In this document: positions 21,751-22,167 of the stretch, one piece after another
How the letters are laid out: every line of letters starts with the position of its first letter
How positions within the stretch are numbered: position 1 is the stretch's first letter
Origin: Escherichia phage E26
Length of the DNA stretch: 64,000 nt
Strand: one strand, 5' to 3'
Sequence record: MN655998.1
Notes under the pieces: generated by a model
Seen by the model: the letters and a program-made list of their open reading frames with translations, nothing else
The model's database searches: none
What the model was told of the DNA's origin: nothing
Made by a program: the position numbers and the translations under genes

Positions 21751-22167
21751 TTAGAGAGATTCGGTAAAGGTACGCGCGATAACGTCACGCTGCTGGTCTG
21801 GAGTCAGACTATTGAAGCGCACTGCGTAACCAGAAACGCGAATTGTAAGCTGCGGGTACTTCTCAGGATGTTCAACCGCGTCCAGCAACATTTCTCGTAA
21901 CAATACGTTAACATTCAAATGCTGACCACCTTCGACAACCGGAGCACCATTATCTACAATAACAGGACGGAAGCTAGTTGTGTGCAGTTCCAGAGAATCG
22001 ACGTCTTCTGCGGTGATCACATGGTCTTCTGCGAAAGTTTTACTAACAATTACTTTAGCGCCGATCAGTGCTTTCGGTTCGGATACCAGAATCATAGGCG
22101 CGAAGTGTCCACCAATAATAGTACCTTTATGCTCACCTTTCATGATTTGAATTGCTTTAAATTCCAT
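21751..22167 (-). CDS. autonomous glycyl radical cofactor (GrcA/YfiD-like)
   Basis: C-terminal [12 protein letters not shown]...[20 protein letters not shown]...RTFTESL is the YfiD/PFL glycyl-radical signature; T4 encodes a homolog. Confidence 0.88.

Follow-up and report, generated by a model that had tools for sequence, protein, structure and literature searches.

A vs.6-type gene in an RB49-like coliphage and its probable role as a spare part for host pyruvate formate-lyase

This analysis concerns vs.6, a gene for a protein of 138 aa that lies at 21751..22167 on the minus strand of a 64,000 nt stretch of the genome of Escherichia phage E26 (MN655998.1; the whole stretch is referred to below as the window). 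Judging from its sequence and setting, it is very probably the Krischvirus ortholog of T4 vs.6, the gene for Y06I, and specifies a phage-borne protein of the GrcA/YfiD kind that would serve as a spare part for the pyruvate formate-lyase (PFL) of the host. The ORF of this autonomous glycyl-radical cofactor is intact from ATG to TAA and has two parts, delimited by alignment: a phage-type N-terminal half (codons 1–76; 21940..22167, minus strand) and a C-terminal glycyl-radical module (codons 77–138; 21754..21939, minus strand), which corresponds to residues 698–759 of PflB and 66–127 of GrcA. The predicted radical glycine, from both the sequence and the alignment, is G113, specified by a GGT codon at 21829..21831 (minus strand) and lying within the motif RVSGYAV. 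Its equivalents are G734 of PflB and G102 of GrcA (numbering of PMC12338860).

The gene itself is already known. It is annotated in RB49-like phages, and its T4 ortholog has been characterised biochemically; the vs.6 family has been known in T4 for decades, and T4 Y06I was reportedly shown in 2001 to repair oxygen-damaged host PFL. In such a role, vs.6 would illustrate clearly how a phage can bring along a metabolic helper to sustain fermentation in its host, and its presence together with NrdD and NrdG indicates that these coliphages are adapted to replication in the low-oxygen gut.

Phage context and expression signals

The window belongs to a Krischvirus, an RB49-like T-even coliphage, at 96–98% nt identity, with the first 25 kb showing 96% nt identity to RB49 and relatives. 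The vs.6 region is 97.7% identical (nt) to that of Escherichia phage RB49, and is also covered by 57 other Krischvirus records at 90–99% nt. The window gene corresponds to RB49p099 'vs.6' (NP_891670), with identical position and flanks, and 136 of the 138 residues match; it is the same gene as RB49 vs.6 and the annotated Krischvirus proteins, and nothing of substance differs in the window protein. Protein identity is at least 99% in 30 records (99.3% to other Krischvirus records), and relatives are labelled in GenBank as either 'autonomous glycyl radical cofactor' (e.g., phages kaaroe, PHB13 and W115) or 'pyruvate formate-lyase'. The recorded hosts of the relatives of this phage are E. coli and Shigella. 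By tblastn, a relative of vs.6 was found in about 1,580 phage records, which include T-even-like phages of Escherichia, Klebsiella, Salmonella, Enterobacter, Yersinia and Aeromonas, and T5-like phages, where the form is shorter.

The gene order in the window is M15 endolysin, vs.8, a 41-aa ORF, vs.6, a terminator, nrdC.11, three small paralogs, regB, vs.1, vs and tk.4, and that of T4 (X04567) is vs.8, vs.7, vs.6 and, further on, regB, vs.1, vs and tk.4. This agreement in gene order supports orthology with T4 vs.6.

Expression signals could be read on both sides of the gene. A strong Shine-Dalgarno sequence, AAGAGGTGA (22171..22179, minus strand), stops 3 nt short of the ATG and overlaps the TAA that closes the 41-aa ORF lying upstream. 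A terminator scan detected a strong intrinsic terminator 10 nt past the stop codon (21707..21741, minus strand), with a GC-rich 10-bp stem (AAGCCAAUCC/GGGUUGGCUU) followed by the U-run UUUCGUUUUA; its RNA fold is −18.2 kcal/mol (z = −4.8 against shuffles), and the records of GEC-3S and Ec_Makalu_001 also carry a terminator annotation at this position. The two upstream genes (together 22178..22788, minus strand) are the vs.8 homolog (22303–22788), so named in the RB49 annotation, and the 41-aa ORF between it and vs.6 (22178–22303). The three ORFs abut or overlap, the terminator scan found no terminator between them, and the two upstream genes are probably co-transcribed with vs.6. Given the abutting ORFs and the terminator after vs.6, this gene would therefore close a short transcription unit as its final cistron, and its position among early genes points to early-region timing of expression. 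The vs.8 homolog has 26% identity to T4 ORF 64.0 (E=2e-6), which is weak but significant, and both it and the 41-aa ORF fall in PHROG families of unknown function.

On the opposite (plus) strand, the antisense ORFs 21679–21900, 21919–22188 and 21980–22150 were treated as mechanical ORFs; plus-strand ORFs over vs.6 gave no credible family match (best E=1e-4, with no stretch above threshold). An Rfam scan of the whole window returned nothing at gathering score.

Some neighbouring genes deserve mention in their own right. Just past the vs.6 terminator, nrdC.11 (20966–21664, minus strand) matches Pfam RlaP (PF10127, E=3.7e-14), a pol-beta-type nucleotidyltransferase of an RNA-repair pathway, and also phrog_388 (nucleotidyltransferase). 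Between regB and nrdC.11 are three consecutive small ORFs of 131, 86 and 64 aa (20112–20944, minus strand), paralogs which cross-match phrog_6261 and phrog_15978, two families of unknown function, and have in common the pattern GK(L/M)Y...P...GYI.DD.G...C.HL...W; a small uncharacterised domain has been triplicated in tandem here. On the other side, 5' of the M15 endolysin gene (22851–23240), about eight very hydrophobic small ORFs of 54–88 aa (23269–25447, minus strand), all designated 'hypothetical' in RB49, have the appearance of clustered genes for small membrane proteins.

The glycyl-radical module and its family

Residues 77–119 match Pfam Gly_radical (PF01228) with E=1.5e-16 and 61.3 bits, against a cut-off of 22.2, and the best NCBIfam match is TIGR04365, GrcA (E=1.9e-39). 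A PDB search retrieved E. coli GrcA (6owr; E=2e-33, residues 37–138 of the window protein) and residues 698–759 of PFL (1h16/2pfl; E=5e-27). By BLASTP, the protein shows 58% overall identity to T4 vs.6 (E=5e-47) and 50/61 identical residues to PflB (E=1e-33), and its residues 3–138 match the full length of the phrog_1209 profile (positions 1–121 of 121; E=3e-51). The match of the module to PFL and GrcA is far beyond chance.

For closer comparison, the sequences used were T4 ORF 63.1 (vs.6/Y06I, 120 aa) and E. coli K-12 grcA and pflB. The last 62 residues are identical to E. coli GrcA at 56 positions (90%; 74% at the nt level), to T4 vs.6 at 54 (87%; 73% nt) and to E. coli PflB at 50 (81%; 74% nt), with residues 77–138 aligning to PflB 698–759 without gaps. 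When the window protein is aligned with both T4 vs.6 and E. coli GrcA, 54 of the 60 positions from E79 to L138 are invariant. The initial annotation had described a spare GrcA/YfiD-like glycyl-radical domain at 21751–22167 with a homolog in T4, and had proposed alignment with GrcA and that homolog as a check. The Pfam, NCBIfam and PDB matches and the alignment agree with the description, the module belongs to a stand-alone protein, the homolog is vs.6/Y06I, and G113 and its flanks are conserved in all three proteins. Its statement that the C-terminus is nearly identical to the PFL module is apt for GrcA but too strong for PFL itself, and the 14-residue radical-loop segment that it quoted, which contains G113, is identical in GrcA and T4 vs.6 but has K as its last residue in PflB.

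PflB (1h16, 2pfl) is 81% identical to the window protein over 61–62 residues, with an identical 13-residue radical loop, but there the module forms the tail of a 760-aa enzyme, whereas the 138-aa window protein stands alone and has no C418/C419 catalytic barrel. It carries the residues of GrcA (P, R, A, E and L) and not those of PflB (K, Q, T, Q and M) at positions 123, 127, 131, 136 and 138. With E. coli GrcA (YfiD, 127 aa; 6owr), it shares 90% of the module, including the radical glycine, the y-beta1 strand and the C-terminal tail, but its N-terminal half is longer and largely different, and the gene is phage-encoded within an early phage cluster whereas GrcA is the product of a stress-induced host gene. 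Like T4 vs.6, it joins a phage-type N-terminal half to a PFL-type radical module, and the two share the N-terminal motifs KA(I/Y)QI..G.HKGTI and A(K/R)(I/V)IVSKTF.ED, 87% module identity, the same neighbourhood and the same family, phrog_1209. They differ in the length of the N-terminal half, which at 76 aa is 18 aa longer than the 58 aa of T4, and in the DNA of the module, which in T4 is 96% identical to grcA but in the window only 73–74% identical to T4, grcA and pflB.

The small, stand-alone size (138 aa, within the usual span of about 120–140 aa), the PFL-type module and the RVSGYAV loop are all sequence features of the GrcA kind, and the full-length profile match and T-even early-region gene order are those of the phage vs.6/Y06I family. 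In the TIGR04365 'spare_glycyl' model, the window protein scores 134.8 bits, which is below the curated cut-off of 170; T4 Y06I also falls short (151.1), and E. coli GrcA passes (234). Since the validated T4 Y06I is itself below 170, the cut-off separates bacterial GrcA from the phage subfamily, and the window protein is classed here within the phage vs.6/Y06I family, as GrcA-like, and is not counted as a GrcA equivalog in the strict sense.

The N-terminal half can be aligned, with insertions at about residues 18–29 and 62–66, and about nine of its 76 positions are common to T4 vs.6 and GrcA (Q7, I8, A37, I40, V41, K43, E47, D48 and R67). By analogy with residues 1–60 of YfiD, it would help to bind cleaved PFL and aid activation by PflA; as it is 18 aa longer than that of T4 and has only about nine invariant positions, PFL binding is extrapolated here.

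Compared with RB49, vs.6 has eight synonymous and two non-synonymous differences, giving a dS of 0.087, a dN of 0.006 and a dN/dS of about 0.07. Between the module and those of GrcA, PflB and T4, third-codon-position identity is about 47–52% and synonymous sites are saturated or nearly so, while 81–90% of residues are kept; against GrcA, synonymous sites are saturated and dN is about 0.10. The gene is under strong purifying selection.

Proposed function and its alternatives

According to PMC8683613, which cites Wagner et al. (2001, BBRC 285:456), just two PFL spare parts have been validated, YfiD (GrcA) and T4 Y06I. The same source describes how the PFL-activating enzyme (PflA) puts a glycyl radical on YfiD or Y06I, how the protein so activated joins oxygen-cleaved PFL in a complex and makes it active again, and that YfiD's N-terminal half (residues 1–60) provides for binding to cleaved PFL and for efficient activation. 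In vivo, the radical passes from G102 of GrcA to C419 of PflB, and GrcA also acts on full-length, inactive PflB (PMC12338860).

Because the module is almost unchanged and the N-terminal half carries phage-type motifs as in T4, we infer the same mechanism for the window protein, with PflA as activase and PflB as client. The protein would be made from an early-region transcript (vs.8, 41-aa ORF, vs.6) that stops at the terminator just past the gene. When oxygen cleaves active host PflB at G734, the phage protein would, as the biochemistry of YfiD suggests, bind the cleaved enzyme, its C-terminal module replacing PflB residues ~698–759 and its N-terminal half helping in binding. The host radical-SAM activase PflA would install the radical on G113 of the phage protein. 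Radical installation and later rescue of PFL have been seen in vitro for T4 Y06I, and a module identity of 87–90% makes both plausible here. TdcE (2-ketobutyrate formate-lyase) may be a second client, given its relatedness to PflB.

The module was matched at two or more places in all of the 5,426 complete E. coli genomes (5,426/5,426), the top matches being pflB, and in E. coli K-12 pflA adjoins pflB, so the host does offer both the partner and the activase. T-even infection shuts off host gene expression, and E. coli GrcA is a stress-induced host gene product; with host expression shut off, damaged PflB would not be re-made and host grcA would not be induced. The benefit of a phage spare part may then lie in keeping up the fermentative supply of acetyl-CoA and ATP in the micro-oxic conditions of the gut, under which phage NrdD and NrdG would independently supply dNTPs. 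No in vivo phenotype of any phage vs.6/GrcA was found in the searchable literature.

A different client has to be considered, since the window also carries nrdD (2427..4289, minus strand; Pfam NRDD E=2.8e-175, Gly_radical E=5.2e-23), for the anaerobic ribonucleotide reductase, and nrdG (521..1030, minus strand; Pfam Fer4_12 E=2.4e-43, and so annotated in RB49), for its radical-SAM activase. NrdD is likewise cleaved by oxygen at its radical glycine, both genes are in the same genome and on the same strand as vs.6, and in Aeromonas phage phiWae14 (1373–4375 of the extracted segment) nrdD, nrdG and a grcA-like gene are contiguous, with a 4-nt overlap between the end of nrdG and the grcA-like gene. 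The spare part is thus physically linked to class III RNR genes in some phages. A spare part or radical shuttle for phage NrdD, activated by phage NrdG, is nevertheless highly improbable. All that the vs.6 protein has in common with NrdD of the window is the pentapeptide RVSGY (BLASTP E about 1), against 81% identity to the PflB tail, so that its module is not of the NrdD C-terminal type, and it is without the zinc-ribbon region of the NrdD C-terminus. The phiWae14 protein, too, has a PFL-type and not an NrdD-type tail. In the window, the genes are 17–21 kb apart (17.5 kb from vs.6 to nrdD and 20.7 kb to nrdG), the RB49 annotation has 42 genes separating nrdD from vs.6, and a terminator of its own follows vs.6; a link in the window was rejected on the grounds of this spacing and of the similarity being limited to RVSGY. 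Both nrd genes are indeed present, as the initial annotation had it, but 'alongside' is true only at genome scale. Nothing ties NrdG to the vs.6 protein, the published activase of YfiD and Y06I being host PflA (for Y06I, PMC8683613).

The protein could instead interfere with host fermentation, redirecting or damping it as a decoy or regulator that titrates PflA or occupies PflB/TdcE. Its N-terminal half is unlike that of bacterial GrcA, and in YfiD this is the half that governs binding; moreover, GrcA acts on full-length inactive PflB in vivo, and so is not limited to the cleaved enzyme (PMC12338860). This is improbable, though somewhat less so than an NrdD client, as T4 Y06I restores PFL and does not inhibit it, according to PMC8683613, and strong purifying selection extends over the whole module, including the residues that fit the PFL active site, which is more than a PflA-binding decoy would need. 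The remaining alternative, that vs.6 is a functionless remnant of a pflB or grcA gene taken from a host and now decaying, might be suggested by the GC content of the module (48%, above the 40.7% of the window) and by the T4 module, which is clearly a recent host capture. Its probability is negligible, and the selection signal effectively refutes it: the frame is intact and has its own Shine-Dalgarno site and terminator, relatives are spread over the ~1,580 phage records, near-identical proteins occur in 30 records, and comparison with every sampled bacterial gene shows saturation at synonymous sites but 90–95% of residues kept. Taken with the dN/dS ratio of about 0.07 and the phrog match, this spread and saturation mark vs.6 as conserved and under selection, not as host DNA in decay. 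A spare part for host PFL thus remains the preferred reading.

Between nrdG and nrdD lie two ORFs (177 and 179 aa; 1242–2326, minus strand) that are conserved, gave no Pfam match and belong to PHROG families of unknown function only (phrog_8242 and phrog_14838).

Origin and exchange of the module

A recent host capture of the window module was considered and rejected, as it is only 74% identical (nt) to E. coli grcA and pflB. Its best matches across the 5,426 E. coli genomes are at about 76–77% nt, and in a scan of 185,579 species genomes (one per species) the best 80 bacterial loci do not exceed 79% nt, the closest among these being GrcA of Phytobacter, Enterobacter and Escherichia sp. ESNIH1 (58/61 aa). 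This evidence indicates that the module diverged long ago. A PflB/GrcA hybrid was also entertained since M93, L95 and E99 match PflB, but it was discarded because L95 and E99 also occur in GrcA of Phytobacter/Enterobacter; the module is best read as GrcA-type with three private changes, L90, M93 and D124.

The T4 module is of another age. It is 96% identical to E. coli grcA at the nt level (178/186), with 59/62 third positions shared and a dS of 0.08, and must therefore have been replaced recently from the host gene, so that T4 vs.6 looks like a recent chimera or a gene conversion with host grcA. The T4 module (3169–3357 of the extracted T4 segment) has E. coli-style codons. Its identity to grcA starts abruptly at the EGGQ codons and ends at the stop codon, and the N-terminal half of T4 vs.6 is unrelated to grcA at the nt level.

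A third form of the module is found within the Krischvirus group itself. In nine records (Shigella phage JK32 and eight others), the first 69 codons of vs.6 are ~97% identical (nt) to those of the window, but from about window position 21960 to the stop codon identity drops to ~65% nt, and a divergent module (NAGHHLNANV...) is specified. These genomes carry a 594-bp HNH endonuclease gene between vs.6 and nrdC.11, which is absent from the window, and directly beyond it identity is back to 97% (JK32 segment 2705–3560 compared with window 21690–21960). A search for the donor of the JK32-type module led, outside the nine Krischvirus records, no closer than an Aeromonas phage, at only 80% aa. The pattern suggests that a free-standing homing endonuclease carried a flank along by co-conversion, and the window carries the HNH-less allele of vs.6.

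Tentatively, the radical module could be regarded as a cassette that has been exchanged repeatedly, with the window allele an uninvaded target of the homing endonuclease; this is a possibility we hold with well under even confidence. It is raised by three observations: the T4 module is a near-unaltered grcA copy (96% nt) on a phage-type N-terminal half, the window module has diverged anciently (at most 79% nt to the best 80 sampled bacterial loci), and the nine Krischvirus genomes switch to a third module (~65% nt) exactly at the HNH insertion. If true, the HNH enzyme would cleave within the conserved module DNA of phages that, like this one, have no HNH gene, the JK32 module with its divergent sequence would be a co-converted flank immune to cleavage, and module swapping could adapt the spare part to the PFLs of different hosts.

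JK32 also has an extra 576-bp, AP2-type gene between endolysin and vs.8 (1242–1817 of the extracted segment), annotated as 'pathogenesis-related transcriptional factor and ERF protein'. Nothing in the window matches it at ~22858–22896, and it is a second mobile-looking insertion within the same few kb.
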